DNA of 41,264 bases, from positions 1 to 41,264 of the forward strand of contig DAOVET010000016.1 of NCBI GenBank assembly GCA_030668825.1. Reading direction: 5' to 3'. Shown here one piece after another: positions 22,049-31,693 of this stretch. A program made the translations under genes and the position numbers. Source of the stretch: Candidatus Heimdallarchaeota archaeon (GTDB lineage Archaea > Asgardarchaeota > Heimdallarchaeia > Heimdallarchaeales > Heimdallarchaeaceae). The notes below the pieces were generated by a model that had not been told where the DNA came from, did not search any database, and was given only the letters and a program-made list of their open reading frames with translations. Numbering within the stretch: position 1 is the stretch's first letter; each line of letters begins with the position of its first letter.

Positions 22049-22942
22049 CTAAAGGAACGTTCCTTTTGCAGTTAGTATATGGGGGCTCACACCGCTTGAA
22101 AATCTAACTACAACTGTTTTATCAATTGAAGAGCTTTTTCCATGAAGTCTTGTAATAGTTCCTATAAGATGTTTATCAGAATTTGGGAAATTGACTTTAA
22201 CTCTTCTACCAAGATATTTTTCTAATGGAATCTCAGTTTCATAGAGTTTCATAGTAACAGTTCTATTCTTAGATTTTCCTGCACCATCATGTAAAATTCT
22301 GGTAACAACACCAAATGTTGTAGAAATCTTAGCTAACCTCTTTGGTTTAGATTTCTTAGTTCTATTCTTTTTAATTGTAAAAATGTGAGTACCTTGTTCT
22401 ATAGCTTTTCTAGTAGCTTCTGAAACTGTAGTTTTGACAGCTACCTTTTTCTTTACTGGAGCTTTTGCAACAGGCTGTCTTACAGAAGGTCTAGGTTCAG
22501 TTTTCTTTACAACTGCTTTTGGAGTTGTTTTAGGAACCTTCGGTTTAGGAATTACTTTAACTATACTTTCTGTTATAGGCTTCTTCGCAGTAGGAATCTT
22601 AGTAATAGGTTTTTTAGCAGTAGGAACCTTAGCAGTAGGAACCTTAGTAACAGGCTTTTTAGCAGTAGGCTTTTTAGCAGTAGGCTTTTTAGCAGTAGGC
22701 TTTTTAGCAGTAGGAACCTTAGCAGTAGGCTTTTTAGCAGTAGGAACCTTAGTAACAGGTTTAATTTCTTTAGCACTAGCAATAATTTTTTCTGCTATTG
22801 ATTTACCAATGCCTGGTAACTGAGATAATTCTTCTGTTGTTGCTTTAGCTAATTTTTCTATTGTATTATAACCACAATCTTCTAATGTTTTTGCAGCTTT
22901 AGGTCCAACACCAGATAATTTTAGAAGCTCACTTTCAGCCAT
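22049..22942 (-). CDS. HhH domain - Lys/Pro-rich repeat linker - ribosomal protein eL33 (L35Ae)-like fusion
   Basis: N-terminal LSGVGPKAA..L...GY.TIE.LA.....EL..LPGIG (HHH_5 type). C-terminal KYLGRRV....N.DKHLIGTITRLHG....VVVRFSSG resembles the archaeal L35Ae signature (IGR.V.W.....GKI.R.HG..G.V.ARF). Confidence 0.75.
   Translation of the reverse strand: MAESELLKLSGVGPKAAKTLEDCGYNTIEKLAKATTEELSQLPGIGKSIAEKIIASAKEIKPVTKVPTAKKPTAKVPTAKKPTAKKPTAKKPTAKKPVTKVPTAKVPTAKKPITKIPTAKKPITESIVKVIPKPKVPKTTPKAVVKKTEPRPSVRQPVAKAPVKKKVAVKTTVSEATRKAIEQGTHIFTIKKNRTKKSKPKRLAKISTTFGVVTRILHDGAGKSKNRTVTMKLYETEIPLEKYLGRRVKVNFPNSDKHLIGTITRLHGKSSSIDKTVVVRFSSGVSPHILTAKGTFL
22581..22762 (-). repeat. 15-bp coding tandem repeat (about 12 units; KKPTA/KVPTA/KKPVT)
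   Basis: Repeated TTAGCAGTAGGCTTT / TTAGCAGTAGGAACC units. Confidence 0.95.
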
Positions 22943-23089
22943 TATTTTACACCTTTTTAACAATCAGAAATCTGGAAAATAGTTTTAAAAACCTTTAGAT
23001 TGAAATGATTTTTCAGAAAGAACATAGAATCATAAAATTTCAACTGAATCTAAAGAAACTTAAAATATGAGTAAAGTATGAAACTATAA

Positions 23090-24170: not shown

Positions 24171-25028
24171 ACGAAAATTGATATGCATAGTCACAGCAAT
24201 TTTTCAGATGGTATTTATTCACCAGAAGAATTGCTAGAATTAGCTCAAAAGGAAGATCTGAAGCTGTTTTCTATTACTGATCATGATACACTTGAAGGTA
24301 CCATTGTTGCTGAAAAGATAGCTGACAATTACTCTTTTGCATATCTTACAGGCATTGAATTATCTGCAAGATATGAACAAACAAAGATAGAAATTTTAGG
24401 ATATAACTTGGATTCTAAAAGCACAAGATTATTTGAGAAAATGACATTCCTTCAGGAAAAAAGAAATGAGAGAGTCTTTAAAATCTTGAAGAAATTAGAG
24501 GAAATGAATCTAGATGTTACATATGATGATATCTCAAAACAAATTGGAGGTGGAGTTAGTCCCGGAAGACCACATTTAGCCAGAGCGATGATCGAAAAGA
24601 AAATTGTAAAAACAATAAATGAGGCTTTTGAGAAATATCTTGGAAATGGAAAACCAGCTTATGTCAAAAGAGAAACAATAGCTCCCCAAGAGGCAATAGA
24701 ATTGATTCTAAGTGGAAATGGTACAGCTGTTCTTCCTCATCCATTGCTTGTTGAGGGTGAAAATCTACAGAAACTGGAGGAATACCTTGAATTACTAATG
24801 TCTTGGAAACTGGATGGAATTGAAGTTTATTATGATTACAACCATATTGAAACGTTTCTTCCAAAAAGAAAAATCAAAGCAGGAATCGAATTTCTTAGCG
24901 ACTATTGTAAAAAGAATGATTTACTAATAACAGGAGGATCAGATTTCCATGGGGATACTGGGAAGCTAGGATCAGTTAAGATCCCCAAAGAGGAAATTAA
25001 GAATATTTTTTCCTATTTTAACTTGTAA
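24171..25028 (+). CDS. PHP-domain phosphoesterase (TrpH/YciV-like)
   Basis: KIDMHSHSNFSDG, ITDHDT, GIELS, GRPHLA, LPHP and TGGSDFHG. Best start appears to be ACG at 24171, behind GAGGTG. Confidence 0.9.
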   Translation, partial: TKIDMHSHSNFSDGIYSPEELLELAQKEDLKLFSITDHDTLEGTIVAEKIADNYSFAYLTGIELSARYEQTKIEILGYNLDSKSTRLFEKMTFLQEKRNERVFKILKKLEEMNLDVTYDDISKQIGGGVSPGRPHLARAMIEKKIVKTINEAFEKYLGNGKPAYVKRETIAPQEAIELILSGNGTAVLPHPLLVEGENLQKLEEYLELLMSWKLDGIEVYYDYNHIETFLPKRKIKAGIEFLSDYCKKNDLLITGGSDFHGDTGKLGSVKIPKEEIKNIFSYFNL

Positions 25029-25394
25029 GAATTCCATACCTTTTGTAATAGTTCAGGATCATCAGAAAAAATATTATCGACACCCCATTCAAAAGGTTCA
25101 TCATGGTTTGTTCATCATTAATTACCCAAGGATGAACAGCTAAATTCAATTTATGGGCTCTTTCAATACTTTTCTGAGTAACAATTTTCAGAAAATTATA
25201 ATTAATAGGAACTTGAAAAACATAGAATTTTTTATGGGAGAATAATGTAAAGTGACCAAGAAAAGCTAAGACTTCTAGACGGTTTGCACTTGTAGGTATA
25301 CTCCATTGTACACTTATATCACTAAATCTCTTGATTTGTTTATGGTGAAACGAACCCAATAAAAACCAATCTTGAGTATTTGAAGAAATTATAG
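24939..25394. repeat. Left copy of diverged ~456-bp direct repeat (PHP 3' end + GDPD 3' half)
   Basis: Aligns to 30798-31254 with one 1-bp indel. 25241-25311 is identical to 31101-31171. Confidence 0.95.
25013..25394 (-). pseudogene. Truncated, frameshifted 3' fragment of GDPD
   Basis: GSFHHKQIKRFSDISVQWSIPTSANRLEV...VHPWVIND matches the 30872-31693 protein. There is no 5' half, and a 1-bp deletion near 25091 shifts the frame. Confidence 0.9.
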
Positions 25395-25520: not shown

Positions 25521-26576
25521 TCACTTCGCACCTTTATGTTTTGAATTAAGGCGTCTAAGAAAATTATTTTTTACACTTAAAGCTAATAAATAACCAATCA
25601 CTGATATACCTACACCACATAAAACATCGATTATAAAGTGATGATTGAAATAGATTGCTCCTAGGAATATAGCTATACTGTAGGGAATTGTTAAATATAG
25701 TGATTTTTTCCATTTTTGATGAATACACAAGGTTGCTGATAAAGCGTAAACAGCATGAACACTAGGGAATGCTGCAAAAGAGTTTTGTTCAAATGTTCCA
25801 TAATACCACGAAAAAATATTCACTCCTAAAATCTCATCGATTCTTCCTAGACCAGCTGTTATATTCTGGCTATAATCTAATGTAATATCAGGTTGAACAA
25901 AACCATATTGATTAATATACCAAGGAGCTGCTGCGGGAAAACTCACAAAGAGAATAAAGGAGAGTAATGTTACAGTGTAGAAAGTAATTACAAGAAATTT
26001 GAAGTTTTTCCCATCTCCTTTAAAATACAAGTATATCCCAAAAACTAAGGGAACAAAGGCATGTAATAGATAAATGCCCCCTAAAATAAGATCAATAGGA
26101 ATAGAATGTAAAGCTGAATAAAAACATTGATTAGGAGTCATTCCTCCAAAAATCCATCCAAATATTTTCATCTCTAAGTGATAGATTTCTCCTGTAAGAA
26201 CACGTGGATACAGTAAATTTCCTTTTATTTTTGACATTAACTCATAAGTAATCCAAAGTATGAAAAAAGGTAAACTGTTAATTAATAATGTAATAGGGGA
26301 TTTAGAGGTTTTAAATTTCATCAAATAAAGAACTGTAGAAAGAACAGCGAAAAAAATAAAAACAATCCCTGATAATAATGAAATAAATACAAGTCCTTCT
26401 CCATTCAAAATAATTAAAATAATATTAAAGAGAAGATAAATTGTAGCGAAAAAAATGTGATATTGTCCGCTTTTAAAATCTTGCATTATTTTCTTTGATA
26501 ACGGTGTTTGTGTAAGTGTTATTTTCTCTTCTAATTGTTTAGTTTCTCCATTTCTTCCCAATTCCAATTCTATCAC
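25521..26576 (-). CDS. PAP2-superfamily, Aur1/inositol-phosphorylceramide-synthase-like membrane enzyme
   Basis: YLLH, FPAAAPWY, AGLGRID, FAAFPSVH and YFNHHFIIDV match the Aur1/PAP2_3 conserved domains. About 8 TM. Confidence 0.85.
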   Translation of the reverse strand: MIELELGRNGETKQLEEKITLTQTPLSKKIMQDFKSGQYHIFFATIYLLFNIILIILNGEGLVFISLLSGIVFIFFAVLSTVLYLMKFKTSKSPITLLINSLPFFILWITYELMSKIKGNLLYPRVLTGEIYHLEMKIFGWIFGGMTPNQCFYSALHSIPIDLILGGIYLLHAFVPLVFGIYLYFKGDGKNFKFLVITFYTVTLLSFILFVSFPAAAPWYINQYGFVQPDITLDYSQNITAGLGRIDEILGVNIFSWYYGTFEQNSFAAFPSVHAVYALSATLCIHQKWKKSLYLTIPYSIAIFLGAIYFNHHFIIDVLCGVGISVIGYLLALSVKNNFLRRLNSKHKGAK

Positions 26577-26599
26577 TCCTTAATATCAATTTACTTATG

Positions 26600-26650
26600 A
26601 AAAAAAAAACGACCAGTACTTCTCTAATATTCTTCTGTTGCTGATCGTTT
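26600..26650 (-). terminator. Hairpin plus U-tract (bacterial-style intrinsic terminator) after the radical SAM gene
   Basis: On the - strand AAACGATCAG pairs with CTGGTCGTTT (one G-U pair) and is followed by a T-run. The loop is long. Confidence 0.45.
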
Positions 26651-26721
26651 GGTTATTCGTTTAAGGCTTGTTTTAAAAGATTCGAAAGTTCTCCTTATCT
26701 TTGTTCTAAATTTGTCAAACA

Positions 26722-28173
26722 TTATTGTTCCTCCTTTTTAGTCGATTCATAGTTAGTTTCTTCAATTAGTTCCTCGGTACCATCCCAATCAACATCCCAG
26801 TATCGGGGGGGTTTAAAATCAACAAAATGCGATAATTTGGTAGATTCACGTCGAATCCTATCGGCTACTGGTGCCCAATCTTTGGATGCTTGTTGACATT
26901 TATCAGTAAGGTAATCAACTGTTTCATTATCAATCATCTGAGTAGATTTTGCATTTGATTCATGCACCATCTCTTTCAGTGAATCAGGATTGTCAAGAAG
27001 AGGGCAAGGACGTAAATAGTTTTTATTGAATGGTTGTTTACGATTATATTGTCTAAATAATGGCGATTTCAAAGATTCCAACAAACTTACATCTTTGATA
27101 TTAACATTTGAATAATGAATAAAGGCACATGGTTCAACATCTCCATTTGCGTTGATATGTAGATAGCTTCTTCCTCCTGCTATACAACCTCTTGCATAAT
27201 CTCCATCATTCCAAAAATCAATTAAGAAAATAGATTTTGTTTCTCTAAATTTCCGAACTTGATGAAACATAAATTCTCTTTGCTCTGGAGTACTCATTAA
27301 TTCTATTATAGCATCTTTTCCAAGCGGCATATATGTAAATAACCATCCATAACTTGCACCCATCTCAATCATATAGTCGATAAATTCGTCTGATCCTATA
27401 ACATGTGTATTCTTATTGTGATAACAAGTAGAAATTCCAAACAAGACACGATGCTTCTTAAGAAGTTTCATGGCTTTTATTACCTTTTTATAAGTACCCT
27501 TACCTCGACGAAAATCGGTTTCTGCTTCAAAACCTTCAACACTTATGGCTAAAGTGAGATTTCCAACTTCAGCTAATGCCATAGCAAATTCTTCATCGAC
27601 TAAAGTTCCGTTTGTAAATGCCAAAAAGAAGCAATCTTGATGTTTTTTTGCTAATTTTAATAAATCGTTCTTTCTGATAGTTGGTTCTCCACCTGAATAT
27701 AGATACCAATAGATCCCTAAGTCTTTTCCTTCTAATATAATCCTATCCATTAGCTCAAAACTTAAGTTATCTGTTTTATCATATTCTGCGGCCCAGCACC
27801 CTTCACAGTTCAAATTACATGCAGATGTAGGATCCATAAGAATGGCTATAGGAACATTGCACTGGTTTTCTCTACTTATTTTGCGAGTCTTTTCAATCCC
27901 AACAAGTACTGTATTTACACCAAAATTCCGTACGAATAGTTTCATAGTTTTTGGATTTATATTTTCAAACGAATATAGAAGAAGCTTATACATAGGATTA
28001 CTTTCATCACGAAAAGCTTTGAAAGTTCTCTTTTGAATAGAATTCGCTGCAAATCGTTCAACACCAGAAATAAGCTTTGGAATATTTTTCTTTGGATTCT
28101 TTAAAGCATATCTAGTTGCCAAGTTTAAAACTGTCCTATTAATTGGGTTATTTTTACGTCTCATGTTTATCAC
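26722..28173 (-). CDS. Radical SAM enzyme with SPASM/twitch-like C-terminus, bacterial (anaerobe)-type family
   Basis: DPTSACNLNCEGC (CxxxCxxC), SGGEP, FTNGTL, GCIAGGRSYLHINANGDVEPC and RPCP. Confidence 0.92.
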   Translation of the reverse strand: MINMRRKNNPINRTVLNLATRYALKNPKKNIPKLISGVERFAANSIQKRTFKAFRDESNPMYKLLLYSFENINPKTMKLFVRNFGVNTVLVGIEKTRKISRENQCNVPIAILMDPTSACNLNCEGCWAAEYDKTDNLSFELMDRIILEGKDLGIYWYLYSGGEPTIRKNDLLKLAKKHQDCFFLAFTNGTLVDEEFAMALAEVGNLTLAISVEGFEAETDFRRGKGTYKKVIKAMKLLKKHRVLFGISTCYHNKNTHVIGSDEFIDYMIEMGASYGWLFTYMPLGKDAIIELMSTPEQREFMFHQVRKFRETKSIFLIDFWNDGDYARGCIAGGRSYLHINANGDVEPCAFIHYSNVNIKDVSLLESLKSPLFRQYNRKQPFNKNYLRPCPLLDNPDSLKEMVHESNAKSTQMIDNETVDYLTDKCQQASKDWAPVADRIRRESTKLSHFVDFKPPRYWDVDWDGTEELIEETNYESTKKEEQ

Positions 28174-28186
28174 TTCACCAGCATAT

Positions 28187-28251
28187 AAACAACTGTTTCA
28201 AACAAGTATTTAAATCTTTTGTTTCAAACAATAGTTTTAAATATGTGTTTA
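28187..28251. promoter_or_regulatory. Array of five 13-bp quasi-palindromic operators (AAAC-N4-GTTT) overlapping a TATA-like box
   Basis: Units start at 28187, 28200, 28213, 28226 and 28239, between the divergent radical SAM and TetR genes. Confidence 0.75.
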
Positions 28252-28432
28252 AATAATTCCTTCATGAGAGAAAACTATAAATTCAATTAAAATTGAGAGT
28301 TAGATTAGACATTAGCCTGTAGAAAAAACAGAAATACTAGATTAAGGAGTATACTTGAATGAGTTCCTAAAGGGCTTCGGTAAGATATAAGAGTGTTCAT
28401 TTGCTCAAATCATTATAATTGGAGAACTGACC

Positions 28433-29005
28433 TTGAAAAAAATAGTTTCTAAAAAAGAAAAAATTATTAATGCAGCACTTAAACTTATTGCTAAAAAGGG
28501 GAATTTAAATTTTACAATAAGAGAGGTTGTACTAGATGCAGATGTTAACATTGCTTCTGTAAATTATTATTTTGGAACTAAAAAAAAATTGATTCAAGAA
28601 ATTGAAAAAAAATTCATTGGAAATTTGCTAGAATTTCAGAATATACTAAAAGATACTCAAATTAAACCAAAACAGCGCCTTATCAAATGGACTAGTAATT
28701 TATTTGAATATATGATTGACAATCCTGGACTAATATCGATATTAAACAATAAACTTATTTTTACAGAAGATATAGATACTACCTTTAAGTTATTTCTGCA
28801 AGAAAATAATAAATATCTAGCTCAAATTATTAGAGAAATCACAAGTATTGAAGAAGAAATTTTAAAATTTAAAATAGTCCAAATTAATGCTGGTCTTTTC
28901 TTCCCTATGATCTTTGTTAATAATTCTGAAAACCTGTTTGGATTTTCTTTCAAGGATCTAGAAAATCGAAATAAATATGTCAAATCTATTATTGATTCAA
29001 TTTGA
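28433..29005 (+). CDS. TetR/AcrR-family transcriptional regulator
   Basis: KEKIINAALKLIAKKG...TIREV...ADVNIASVNYYFGTKKKL helix-turn-helix. Confidence 0.93.
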   Translation: MKKIVSKKEKIINAALKLIAKKGNLNFTIREVVLDADVNIASVNYYFGTKKKLIQEIEKKFIGNLLEFQNILKDTQIKPKQRLIKWTSNLFEYMIDNPGLISILNNKLIFTEDIDTTFKLFLQENNKYLAQIIREITSIEEEILKFKIVQINAGLFFPMIFVNNSENLFGFSFKDLENRNKYVKSIIDSI

Positions 29006-29108
29006 GTAGAATAGAGTTAATTGCTCTTGATTAAGAAAGTTAAGAAAAGAAAATTGATAATTTTATAATTGTCTTATACAATTAAATTAAGTTTCAAAAG
29101 GTGTTAAA

Positions 29109-30413
29109 ATGGTTAAAGTATCAAAAGAAAATGTGAAATATCTTTCATTTGAAGGGGGAGGAGGAAAAGGCGTAGCATATATTGGTGCTCTAGAAGTCAT
29201 GAAGGAGCTAGGTATTTTATCTTATTTTGATAAGGAAAAAGATAGTAAAACATACAAAAGGCTCAATCCTGACAAAATCATGGGTGTTGCAGGAACATCT
29301 GTTGGTTCAATAGTAGCTTTGCTTGTAGCTTGTGGGTATACGCCTGAAGAAATGCAAGATATTTTGATGACGAAAATAGGTTTAAACATTTTAGACACAG
29401 TAGAATTTGGTAAAATGCCTACTATTTATACAGAGGAGTACCAAGATATAGTCATTCAAGATCCAAGATTTAAAGATGTAGAGAAATTCATGAAAGCTTC
29501 ATGGTTAGAATATATAAAATCAGAAGATAAGAAATTAAGCAATTTAATGGAAATACCTGTTAATCGTATTCAAAGGAGAGGGATGCAATTCTTTTCGTTG
29601 ATCCTAAAAGGTTTCCTCAGTTATGAATCAAAAAAAACTTATTCTAAAGACTTGTCAAGCAAAATTAGTCCTTTTACTATCAAGGAATTAATTCACTCAG
29701 AGACAATAAACCCAGCAATAAAAAAAATTTTGCAAGAGCCAATCCATTCGTTTAATAGTTTAAAACACGAATATGGGTTATTTTTGGGTAAGACAGCAAG
29801 AGACATATTTGATTTATGGATTGAACAAAAATCTGGCGTACAAAACTGTACGTTTAAAATTTTTAAAAAGGAGTTTAATATAGATTTAGTTATACCTGCA
29901 GTTAGTGTAAATTCAAAAGAAGTATTTTATTTCAGAAATAATAGAAAATGGAAGAATCTATGTGTAGCAGATGCTGTAAGAATGTCAATAAACATCCCCT
30001 TCTTATTTAAACCTGTATTAATGAAGAAAACAAAAAAGGGAGTAAGCTCTATTACAGATAAGATTCATTTAGCTAATTTTATGATAGATGGAGGGGCAAT
30101 AAATAATTTTCCAATACATGCCTTTGACTCAAAAAATTCTACAAAGCTAAATCCTTCAGTCGTCGGATTATCTCTAGTACCTTATTATAGAGCAAAGAAA
30201 TCAGAAATTAATTCTCTAAGTGATTACATCAATTTTATAGGTTATATAATTCAAAAAAATGCAACAAAACTTCAAGTTTTACATGATGAAGACAAAGAAC
30301 AAATTATTGAATTGGATACTAAAGCAGTGAGCGTTTTTGATTTTGCATTTGAAGAAATTCCAGAAGATGTGAAAAAGGAATCTAGAACTAGAACATTAGA
30401 ATATTTCTCGTGA
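29109..30413 (+). CDS. Patatin-like phospholipase
   Basis: EGGGGKG oxyanion motif, GTSVG catalytic Ser, AVRMS..IP..F and IDGG catalytic Asp. Confidence 0.93.
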   Translation: MVKVSKENVKYLSFEGGGGKGVAYIGALEVMKELGILSYFDKEKDSKTYKRLNPDKIMGVAGTSVGSIVALLVACGYTPEEMQDILMTKIGLNILDTVEFGKMPTIYTEEYQDIVIQDPRFKDVEKFMKASWLEYIKSEDKKLSNLMEIPVNRIQRRGMQFFSLILKGFLSYESKKTYSKDLSSKISPFTIKELIHSETINPAIKKILQEPIHSFNSLKHEYGLFLGKTARDIFDLWIEQKSGVQNCTFKIFKKEFNIDLVIPAVSVNSKEVFYFRNNRKWKNLCVADAVRMSINIPFLFKPVLMKKTKKGVSSITDKIHLANFMIDGGAINNFPIHAFDSKNSTKLNPSVVGLSLVPYYRAKKSEINSLSDYINFIGYIIQKNATKLQVLHDEDKEQIIELDTKAVSVFDFAFEEIPEDVKKESRTRTLEYFS

Positions 30414-30682
30414 GCGCATACATTTCTGAAGTGATTTTAAGTTTCAGAAGATAATTCATTGTATATTTTTCTTCAATATTGTTGAAGATAAAAAAGGCCT
30501 TTTATAAGAAAAACTAGTTAAAAGAGAGAGAAAACAGCAGGAGAAAATAGTTTTCGAGAAGTTGATAGAGAAAACAGTTATCTTGCAGTTAAAGCTAGGT
30601 AGAAGAAAACGGTTACTCTTGTCTCAAACAACACATGCTGTAACAAACTTTGCTAACAGCCTTATTACTTTTAAAGACCAAG

Positions 30683-30796
30683 CTATGAATTATGTACAGT
30701 TTCACCATCAATCAAACCATTACTGTCCAGATTCCCTGATGAATCGTCTAATAGAGGGTTCAAATTATAGTTTATCTCCCAAGAATCACTCATTCC
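30683..30796 (-). pseudogene. Scrap of a Ca-binding DxDxDG (TSP3-like) surface-protein repeat
   Basis: Manual translation GMSDSWEINYNLNPLLDDSSGNLDSNGLIDGE, ending exactly at the repeat junction. Confidence 0.6.
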
Positions 30797-30797
30797 T

Positions 30798-31254
30798 TCA
30801 GATTTCCACAGGTATACTGGGAAGCTAGGGTCCGTTCGAGTTCCCAATAAGGAAATAAAGAATATTCTTTCCTACTTCAACTTGTAAGAATCCCACACCT
30901 TTAGTAATAATTCAGGATCATCTGAAAAAATCCCGTCTATTTCCCATTTAAAAAGATTCATCATAATTTGTTCATCATTAATTGTCCATGGATGAACAGC
31001 TAAATTCCATTTGTGGGCTCTTCTAATGCTTCTTTGAGTAACAATTTTCAGAAAATTATAATTCATAGGTACTTGAAAAACACAGAATTTTTTATGGGAA
31101 AATAATGTAAAGTGACCAAGAAAAGCTAAGACTTCTAGACGGTTTGCACTTGTAGGTATACTCCATTGTACGCTTATATCTCTAAATCTCTTGATTTGTT
31201 TTTGGTGAAATGAACCTAATAAAAACCGATCTTGAGCATTTGAAGAAATTATAG
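30798..31254. repeat. Right copy of diverged direct repeat (orphan PHP C-terminus + GDPD 3' half)
   Basis: The + strand encodes SDFHRYTGKLGSVRVPNKEIKNILSYFNL*, versus SDFHGDTGKLGSVKIPKEEIKNIFSYFNL* in the PHP gene. Confidence 0.95.
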
Positions 31255-31693
31255 CTTCGAGTATTTTTTCAGGAGCCTCTTTTAACTCATCTTTAATATC
31301 CATATTTACTCGAATTTTTGGAAATTTATCAAGAAATCCAACAAGCGAAAGAATCTTGAATTCTTTGTTTCTATAAGGATATTCCCAACTTTTAGAATCT
31401 TGATACCAATAGCCCAAATCATATGCTTGTAATTTATCAAAAGTATAGTCAATAATTGAACCAATTCCATTGGTAGTACGATCTAAAGATTCATCATGAA
31501 AAATCACAGGAATACCATCTTTTGTCAACCGAATATCTGTTTCCAGAACATCTACATCCAAATCATAAGCTTCTTTGAAGGATTGATATGAACTCTCTGG
31601 AGTGTAAGCACTTCTCCCTCTATGTGCTATAATCAACGGACGATCATTTTTTAGAAATGGAATGTTACTTCTCAGATAGACGGAACTTTTCAT
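30872..31693 (-). CDS. Glycerophosphodiester phosphodiesterase (GDPD)
   Basis: IIAHRG, PES, ETDIRLTKDG..VIFHD..LDRTT, NMDIK, VHPWTIND and DGIFSDDP. Confidence 0.94.
   Translation of the reverse strand: MKSSVYLRSNIPFLKNDRPLIIAHRGRSAYTPESSYQSFKEAYDLDVDVLETDIRLTKDGIPVIFHDESLDRTTNGIGSIIDYTFDKLQAYDLGYWYQDSKSWEYPYRNKEFKILSLVGFLDKFPKIRVNMDIKDELKEAPEKILEAIISSNAQDRFLLGSFHQKQIKRFRDISVQWSIPTSANRLEVLAFLGHFTLFSHKKFCVFQVPMNYNFLKIVTQRSIRRAHKWNLAVHPWTINDEQIMMNLFKWEIDGIFSDDPELLLKVWDSYKLK

Follow-up and report, generated by a model that had tools for sequence, protein, structure and literature searches.

The window analysed here is the entire 41,264-bp contig C48 of assembly G000 (2.76 Mb, 90.6% complete), a heimdallarchaeal genome, and it carries a cassette of four genes that is found as a unit in 4 of the 25 genomes of the genus and in four genomic contexts. 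The genes encode an Aur1-type membrane enzyme of the PAP2_3 family, a radical SAM/SPASM enzyme (rSAM), a TetR-family regulator and a patatin-like acyl hydrolase. We give about even odds (a probability near 0.5) to the reading that the cassette is an accessory module under TetR control, which joins lipid tails to each other and alters both head groups and acyl chains. In the scheme that follows, the enzymatic activities, substrates and regulatory logic are inferred from the genes. A 5.4-kb island without an integrase has been inserted between a PHP and a GDPD gene, with duplication of a 457-bp target. Its core would be a two-gene operon with the rSAM gene first and the PAP2_3 gene second. By analogy with the family of membrane-spanning lipid synthases (Mss), the rSAM would remove hydrogen at the tips of two alkyl chains of membrane lipids and link them into a membrane-spanning lipid, and the PAP2_3 enzyme, by analogy with inositol phosphorylceramide synthase, would take a phospho-headgroup, most obviously inositol phosphate, off a donor phospholipid and place it on a free lipid hydroxyl. 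On the opposite strand, TetR would repress the operon through two palindromes over its promoter, and the patatin-like hydrolase may trim or supply acyl chains.

An earlier note on this DNA had described the four genes, together with the adjoining GDPD gene, as a lipid cassette of bacterial or eukaryotic type that scavenges or rebuilds lipids, and had not recognised it as a described system. We likewise found no description of the combination of rSAM, Aur1-type and patatin genes in the literature, while the occurrence of Mss homologues in Asgard archaea is already in print in the accessible part of PMC13159169. What is new here is the Mss-like gene in a conserved operon with an Aur1-type transferase, its link to a patatin, the candidate TetR operator, and mobility by insertion with a long target duplication. 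The locus also adds a host lineage in which Tes and PlsC were not found and which nevertheless has many DegV genes, and the four-gene construct is a defined unit that can be expressed and assayed.

A mobile four-gene unit and its landing site

The identities and coordinates of the four genes in the earlier note stand, as does their lipid theme: the open reading frames (ORFs) are exact and the Pfam scores all exceed the gathering cut-offs (PAP2_3, PF14378, 68.3 bits against a cut-off of 27; Radical_SAM 70.9; SPASM 25.9 against 21.5; TetR_N 37.3; Patatin 81.4; and, for the neighbouring gene, GDPD 125.7 bits). The nearest homologues of three of the proteins bear source names such as “Candidatus Heimdallarchaeaceae archaeon” and “Promethearchaeota archaeon”, in line with a Heimdall-group Asgard host. 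Close relatives of the PAP2 enzyme (66–94% identity) occur in 3 of the 24 other genomes of the genus, twice in G005, twice in G008 and once in G009. In the rest of the order, relatives reach 28–34% identity only, in 9 of 16 genomes of other families. Of the 47 genomes of the order, 4 have the rSAM, namely those that also encode the close PAP2 (G000, G005, G008 and G009); the pair is thus found in 4 of 25 genomes of the genus and, at the thresholds used, in none of the 22 other genomes of the order.

Directly downstream of each of the six rSAM copies in the genus lies the PAP2 gene, and TetR and a full-length patatin accompany four of the copies, namely those of the window, G008:C47, G008:C3 and the second copy in G005. 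The contig of the G009 copy ends inside the patatin gene, and the first G005 copy consists of PAP2 and rSAM without TetR or patatin; a copy labelled Ca. Harpocratesius repetitus has TetR and rSAM only. The flanks differ from site to site, with PHP and GDPD in G000 and G009, DegV beyond the patatin in G008:C47 and G005, and a PadR-methyltransferase plus MMPL gene beyond PAP2 in G008:C3 and G005. Throughout, the four genes keep the same order at 51–97% protein identity, which indicates that the unit has persisted through long divergence and relocation. The cassette proteins of G000 and G009 are 94–96% identical to each other, and the flanking PHP, PCP and ORF137 proteins 88–91%. The cassette is an accessory module that moves between sites, and the check on co-occurrence that the earlier note had proposed speaks for the unit.

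In two of the loci (L021:8873-13153 and L020:1333-5613), a paralogous cassette of the 66–79% type precedes genes for a PadR-methyltransferase fusion and for a 1135-aa transporter of the MMPL family, which may be a lipid exporter linked to the module. One metagenome scan yielded no further cassette copies and another yielded two distant loci at 27% identity. A sequencing run labelled RNA-Seq, which is probably DNA, contains two contigs, of 179 and 242 bases, whose sequences recur unchanged within the rSAM and patatin genes; as such, they are not evidence on expression either way.

The 5.4-kb insert of the window lies between convergent PHP and GDPD genes with one copy of a direct repeat on each side, in keeping with the island that the earlier note had seen. 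The two copies are 88.0% identical over 457 bp and span approximately the last 90 bp of PHP and the last 365 bp of GDPD. The PHP gene is kept in 24 of the 25 genomes of the genus, and we collected the 26 PHP loci from other genomes and sorted them by neighbour. PHP and a full-length GDPD are direct convergent neighbours, with nothing between them, in 16 of these loci; one has the cassette at the same site (G009), one ends inside GDPD, five have a different gene beside PHP, and three are cut by contig ends. In the nearest cassette-free relatives (L102–L104 and L106; 80–87% identical, the closest being L102 at 85–87%), the repeated stretch is single-copy, and the two copies in the window are more similar to each other than to any relative. 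The single-copy empty sites and the mutual similarity of the repeat copies fit a target that was duplicated at insertion and then decayed. Since PHP and GDPD adjoin each other in the 16 loci without a cassette between them, GDPD is the landing site and its adjacency reflects the insertion site. GDPD was found with the cassette at the G000/G009 site alone, the three other contexts lacking it; the earlier note had treated the adjacency as meaningful, and GDPD is not a cassette gene.

Insertion with a long target duplication is known from the restriction-modification literature. The insert in the window resembles such events in that a module is flanked by a duplicated target of hundreds of bases, in the lack of an integrase or transposase, and in recurrence at other genes of the same genome; it differs in detail, the duplication here being 457 bp long and 12% diverged. 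Among the ORFs of the insert and the scanned flanks, no match to a recombinase (integrase or transposase) family was found with Pfam or NCBIfam. A self-comparison of the G000 genome gave at least seven further direct repeats of the same pattern, 130–260 bp long and 76–96% identical, in which the 3′ end of a gene recurs as a short fragment beyond one to six inserted genes (C22 26535/28058; C27 8608/16845; C29 22348/23841; C39 646/5867; C116 29188/31361 and 49160/53602; C127 856/9374). Base composition shows a slight GC dip only, to 26.5% at 28–29 kb against ∼32%.

An Aur1-type enzyme in an operon with a radical SAM enzyme

By its motifs and profile matches, the PAP2_3 enzyme is a homologue of Aur1-type transferases and not an equivalog of a characterised enzyme. 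A profile built from 20 family sequences (A2) finds, in the PDB, the catalytic subunit of yeast AUR1 (9vj3_A, E 2.6e-39; 9ivc_A, E 3.7e-39) over positions 19–301 of its 313, and the next match is a PgpB-type phosphatase at E 1.2e-3. The motifs P271-S272-x-H274 and H313-x3-D317 are invariant in 20/20 sequences of the family and align with PSLH and HHYFVD of AUR1, and the blocks FPAAPPWY, GLxRIDxLLGIN, PSLH and HHYxxD are common to the family and AUR1. The label “Aur1-type” in the earlier note is therefore apt. The homology extends over the whole length for both the fungal inositol phosphorylceramide synthase Aur1 (PDB 9vj3, 9ivc) and the Bacteroides phosphoinositol dihydroceramide synthase of NF052609 (E 2.6e-39 and 3.1e-38), with the motifs PAAPPWY, PSxH and HH[YF]xxD shared. 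In contrast to these enzymes, the PAP2 protein here is coupled to a radical SAM gene, and with 131.9 bits it stays below the NF052609 cut-off of 480.

In a word-based search the named relatives of the PAP2 enzyme are of the Heimdall group only. An exhaustive search returned 8 proteins at E ≤ 1e-30 and 1,075 at E ≤ 1e-3, and the few named neighbours are again of the Heimdall group, 7 of the 10 nearest non-Heimdall clusters being nameless. Judged by these relatives, the enzyme belongs to a Heimdall/Asgard family. Lipid-related neighbours of the distant Heimdall PAP2_3 paralogues (L008–L015) were not found among 10 proteins scanned.

The rSAM has a different affinity. At least 7,997 relatives were found, all with E ≤ 1e-10, and at least 576 species-level genomes encode one (at least 600 stretches matched). 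Among the matches listed, identities are 60–97% to Heimdall-type proteins and then 57–62% to proteins whose names point to Clostridia, Tissierellales, Peptococcaceae and groups like these. By label, the best 80 of at least 600 loci comprise 4 Asgard, 2 methanogen and 74 bacterial ones. This bacterial predominance suggests that the gene passed from bacteria to archaea, the tree itself being midpoint-rooted. In that tree, a quick maximum-likelihood one of 84 rows, all seven rows from Asgard archaea group in a single clade (SH-aLRT support 100%, stem 0.52), whose placement among Bacillota and Spirochaetota the tree does not settle. The two methanogen-labelled rows nest inside Spirochaete clades. 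This is seen with contigs labelled Methanomicrobiales and Methanosarcinaceae, and one copy under a Bacilli label has the same sequence as a copy from Sphaerochaeta (L029, L082, L094 and L095); these methanogen- and Bacilli-labelled copies reflect either mis-binning or very recent transfer.

An alignment of 17 rSAM sequences has a mean column identity of 63%. The CX3CX2C cysteines (C116, C120 and C123) and five further cysteines are invariant in 17/17, and an N-terminal region of ∼100 residues is conserved as well. The AlphaFold model (pLDDT 83.1) has a SPASM-type fold, and its top structural matches are SkfB (Z 25.1), anSME (Z 23.9) and SuiB (Z 23.3), with Tes/GDGT-MAS (7tol) further down at Z 17.1. 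The best NCBIfam matches are NirJ2 and AhbD at 97 and 81 bits, far under their cut-offs of 500, and none of the 64 NCBIfam matches is an Mss-specific model. Assignment of the rSAM to Tes/GDGT-MAS (PDB 7TOL, NF045702) was considered and rejected. The two are alike as radical SAM proteins of similar length with an extension of ∼100 residues before the core, Tes/GDGT-MAS being a tail-coupling lipid enzyme; the rSAM scores 28.6 bits against the NF045702 cut-off of 450, its Z score with Tes is below that with SkfB, and it is not a member.

We consider it probable that the rSAM belongs to the Mss family. Sahonero-Canavesi et al. (2022) report, in the accessible part of the paper, that the radical SAM proteins WP_129545148.1 of T. 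ethanolicus and Tmari_0825 of T. maritima couple two fatty-acid tails, with anaerobic expression in E. coli (PMC13159169). The homologues described there, under a criterion of E ≤ 1e-50 and ≥30% identity to either protein, are spread across Firmicutes, Spirochaetes, Synergistetes, Actinobacteria, the FCB group and others, and “unexpectedly” also Asgard and DPANN archaea; the Asgard homologues are given without gene context in that part of the text. The rSAM shares with Mss the CX3CX2C motif and a C-terminal Fe-S domain, occurrence in anaerobes and lipid-related neighbours. Its taxa also overlap with those of Mss, the spread taking in Bacillota, Spirochaetes, Synergistetes, Actinobacteria, the FCB group and, among archaea, a few that include Asgard. 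A 2026 follow-up lists, in its accessible portion, families that have both Mss and Ger (PMC13274423), and the rSAM taxa overlap with these in Sporanaerobacteraceae, Tepidimicrobiaceae, Tissierellaceae, Thermohalobacteraceae, Caldicoprobacteraceae, Syntrophomonadaceae, Peptococcaceae and Oscillospiraceae; Spirochaetes and Synergistetes are a further overlap with the Mss reports (PMC13159169, same part), and the overlap is consistent with Mss but not specific to it. Unlike Mss as described, the rSAM here is in an operon with an Aur1-type transferase, linked to a patatin and on an insertion island, in a host in which PlsC and Tes were not found.

For the non-Asgard neighbourhoods of the rSAM we used 76 of the best 80 loci, 69 of them with 700 bp or more of upstream sequence. 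In 32 of these 69, the gene immediately upstream, on the same strand, encodes a TetR, and a TetR-profile match lies within 4.5 kb in 40 of the 76. A patatin-domain gene is found within the same distance in 5 of the 76 and a DegV gene near the rSAM in one.

Regulation, host lipids and competing explanations

The 259-bp region between the divergent rSAM and TetR genes is conserved among the cassette copies. It contains the palindrome TTGTTT-C-AAACAA twice, at 28193 and 28219, among TATA-like A/T runs. Allowing one mismatch, the palindrome recurs between rSAM and TetR in the window and in 5/5 other copies of the genus that were examined, and it occurs six times in 776 kb of bacterial loci. TetR probably binds these two palindromes over the operon promoter. 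Scans for sigma-70 promoters and terminators gave results at chance level. Matches of TetR in the PDB and NCBIfam are confined to the DNA-binding domain.

In translation, the active-site motifs of the patatin are intact (the oxyanion loop G16-G-G-G-K-G21, then G62-T-S64-V-G66 and D327-G-G), and they are also kept in a paralogue of 45% identity, in agreement with the Ser/Asp dyad (S64, D327) that the earlier note had read. The family comprises ∼70 clusters at 37–98% identity, with proteins outside it at ≤30%, and its named members are Heimdallarchaeaceae, Heimdallarchaeota, Lokiarchaeota and Promethearchaeota. The 45% paralogue in G000 (L135, G000:C22:15000-26500) is located beside a glyoxalase-family gene, a SPASM radical SAM gene and an aldehyde ferredoxin oxidoreductase, with an Arf-family small GTPase 3 kb away. 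This apparent second pair of radical SAM and patatin genes was set aside as a coincidence, its radical SAM gene encoding an unrelated SPASM protein by the aldehyde ferredoxin oxidoreductase.

For the host background we searched five members of the genus, of which G000, G005, G008 and G009 have the cassette and G013 lacks it; at 88–92% completeness, absences are to be read as not found. Neither Tes (NF045702) nor GGGPS/PcrB (PF01884) scores above its cut-off in any of the five, though archaeal controls match GGGPS, and PlsC (PF01553) was not found in 5/5; as a side observation, the membrane-lipid pathway of the genus looks unusual in this respect. Each of the five genomes has three copies of PlsY, 12–19 copies of the fatty-acid-binding, FakB-type DegV, HGD-D domains and two inositol-1-phosphate synthase domains, and neither DegV nor PlsY has a match in any of four archaeal control genomes. 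The PlsC result agrees with the report of Wu et al. (2022) on Ca. Heimdallarchaeum, and PlsY in Heimdall genomes was already known (PMC8813620, and for PlsY also PMC6431249); a pathway-level link between Asgard archaea and sphingolipid enzymes has been reported too (PMC12872458), all as given in the accessible parts of these papers. These counts fit a lineage with a heavy traffic in fatty acids, which makes acyl-lipid substrates for an Mss-type enzyme and the patatin plausible, leaving the second acylation step unexplained, and the inositol-1-phosphate synthases make an inositol-lipid donor for the PAP2 enzyme plausible.

Several observations weigh against a module for tail coupling and head-group remodelling. 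Mss membership is circumstantial, the likeness being drawn from published descriptions of WP_129545148.1 and Tmari_0825, and the preprint of the Mss paper, in its accessible part, terms the archaeal homologues “low homology”. The fold of the rSAM is nearer to peptide and sulfatase maturases (SkfB, anSME) than to the lipid enzyme Tes. No Aur1-type gene was found beside the rSAM in the 76 non-Asgard loci, which gave one weak PAP2 match, and it is absent from the Harpocratesius copy too; the coupling of rSAM and PAP2 is thus without precedent. The cassette is rare, as the 4 of 47 genomes above attest. A profile of the bacterial TetRs that neighbour rSAM genes gives the cassette TetR 23.5 bits, against 51.4 and 47.4 for two other TetRs of G000. 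Finally, with PlsC not found in the five genomes, synthesis of diacyl lipids by the host is in doubt.

The role that the earlier note had put at the centre, a regulated catabolic or scavenging chain in which the patatin would strip foreign ester lipids of their fatty acids, GDPD would split the glycerophosphodiesters left behind and the remaining genes would make lipids anew, is unlikely. The intact active site of the patatin is compatible with it, the DegV paralogues and the three PlsY genes fit the uptake of outside fatty acids, and DegV adjoins the patatin in two other contexts. However, GDPD is the native target of the insertion and does not travel with the cassette, and the operon under the candidate operator encodes two enzymes of biosynthetic type, a probable Mss-type tail coupler and an Aur1-type transferase, and no hydrolases.

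Somewhat less likely is that the rSAM acts on the isoprenoid ether lipids of the host, replacing the missing Tes, and that the Aur1-type enzyme re-caps the product. This would suit the lack of a Tes match in all five genomes and the presence of inositol phosphate synthase genes, and the accessible part of the Mss preprint raises the possibility for archaeal homologues. Against this, an enzyme found in 4 of the 47 genomes of the order cannot be the general route of the lineage, the ether-lipid substrate is itself uncertain with GGGPS not above its cut-off, and the rSAM is ∼60% identical to enzymes of bacteria with fatty-acid lipids.

An extension of the lipid-module reading that we regard as comparably doubtful is that the mobile module builds hybrid lipids, in which fatty acyls supplied through DegV and PlsY would be welded tail to tail by the Mss-type enzyme and capped with inositol phosphate by the Aur1-like one. 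If true, this would be a natural and switchable “mixed membrane” system in some Heimdall-group archaea, the prokaryotes most closely related to eukaryotes, and would allow a test of how an archaeal host could run bacterial and eukaryotic lipid chemistry. The origin of bacterial-type membranes in an archaeal host is a problem of eukaryogenesis that is still open.

The origins of the four genes bear on whether they belong together at all. Only the rSAM has close bacterial relatives (∼60%), whereas PAP2 and the patatin belong to Heimdall/Asgard families, and the cassette TetR shows a weak likeness to the bacterial neighbour TetRs (23%, E 8e-4) and is not their best match in G000, which leaves its co-transfer with the rSAM from bacteria unsupported. 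The single import of a bacterial or eukaryotic cassette that the earlier note had suggested does not hold; what survives is its observation of a conserved lipid module, with GDPD outside it and bacterial affinity limited to one gene. The differing origins indicate that the unit came together within the archaeal lineage, with an imported rSAM gene at its centre. That the four genes are instead unrelated cargo sharing one mobile segment is improbable. Apart from their origins, the two partial copies (PAP2 and rSAM only in G005, TetR and rSAM only in Harpocratesius) and the other gene-tail-duplication insertions in G000, at least seven in number, would be expected of such cargo; the same four genes in the same order in four contexts, the conserved operator-like palindrome and the lipid-related family assignment of all four genes speak for a functional unit. 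The least probable alternative is that the rSAM is a peptide or cofactor maturase, of the kind found with ribosomally synthesized and post-translationally modified peptides (RiPPs) or of the anSME or NirJ/AhbD-like type: its best structural and NCBIfam matches are to such proteins, but the NCBIfam scores lie far below the cut-offs, its surroundings in 80 loci show no recurrent genes for precursor peptides, proteases or exporters, and both its high column identity across phyla and TetR as its conserved partner are unlike RiPP clusters.

Feature coordinates and further observations

Table 1. Features of the island and its flanks, in window coordinates
Feature	Position	Strand	Remarks
PHP-family phosphoesterase, native left flank	24183..25028	+	Pfam PHP; last ~90 bp within duplicated target
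Left copy of target duplication	24939..25394	.	PHP 3′ end and decayed GDPD 3′ end
Pseudogene fragment of GDPD C-terminus, 113-aa ORF, frame-shifted tail	25018..25359	-	88% match to GDPD residues 147-247; no Pfam match
Aur1-type PAP2_3 membrane enzyme, 351 aa, candidate phospho-headgroup transferase, second gene of rSAM operon	25521..26576	-	
Radical SAM/SPASM enzyme (rSAM), 483 aa, bacterial-type family, probable Mss homologue	26722..28173	-	
Two 13-bp palindromes TTGTTT-C-AAACAA, candidate TetR operator	28193..28231	.	20-58 bp upstream of rSAM start
TetR-family regulator, 190 aa, divergent from rSAM	28433..29005	+	
Patatin-like acyl hydrolase, 434 aa, 103 bp downstream of TetR, same strand	29109..30413	+	
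Right copy of target duplication	30798..31254	.	PHP 3′ remnant and 3′ end of intact GDPD
Intact GDPD, 273 aa, native right flank and insertion target, outside conserved cassette	30872..31693	-	

In NCBIfam the PHP product matches as 3′,5′-nucleoside bisphosphate phosphatase-like, with a score below the cut-off. The ∼385 bp between the stop codon of the patatin and the right repeat (30414-30797) contain no recognisable gene, an 88-aa ORF there being without a family, and the first 65 bp after the stop are also conserved behind the patatin of G008:C47. Outside the island, a 304-aa ORF on the minus strand (22049-22963) has an N-terminal helix-hairpin-helix-like stretch followed by a long lysine/proline-rich repeat of the form PTAKKP / PVTKVP.

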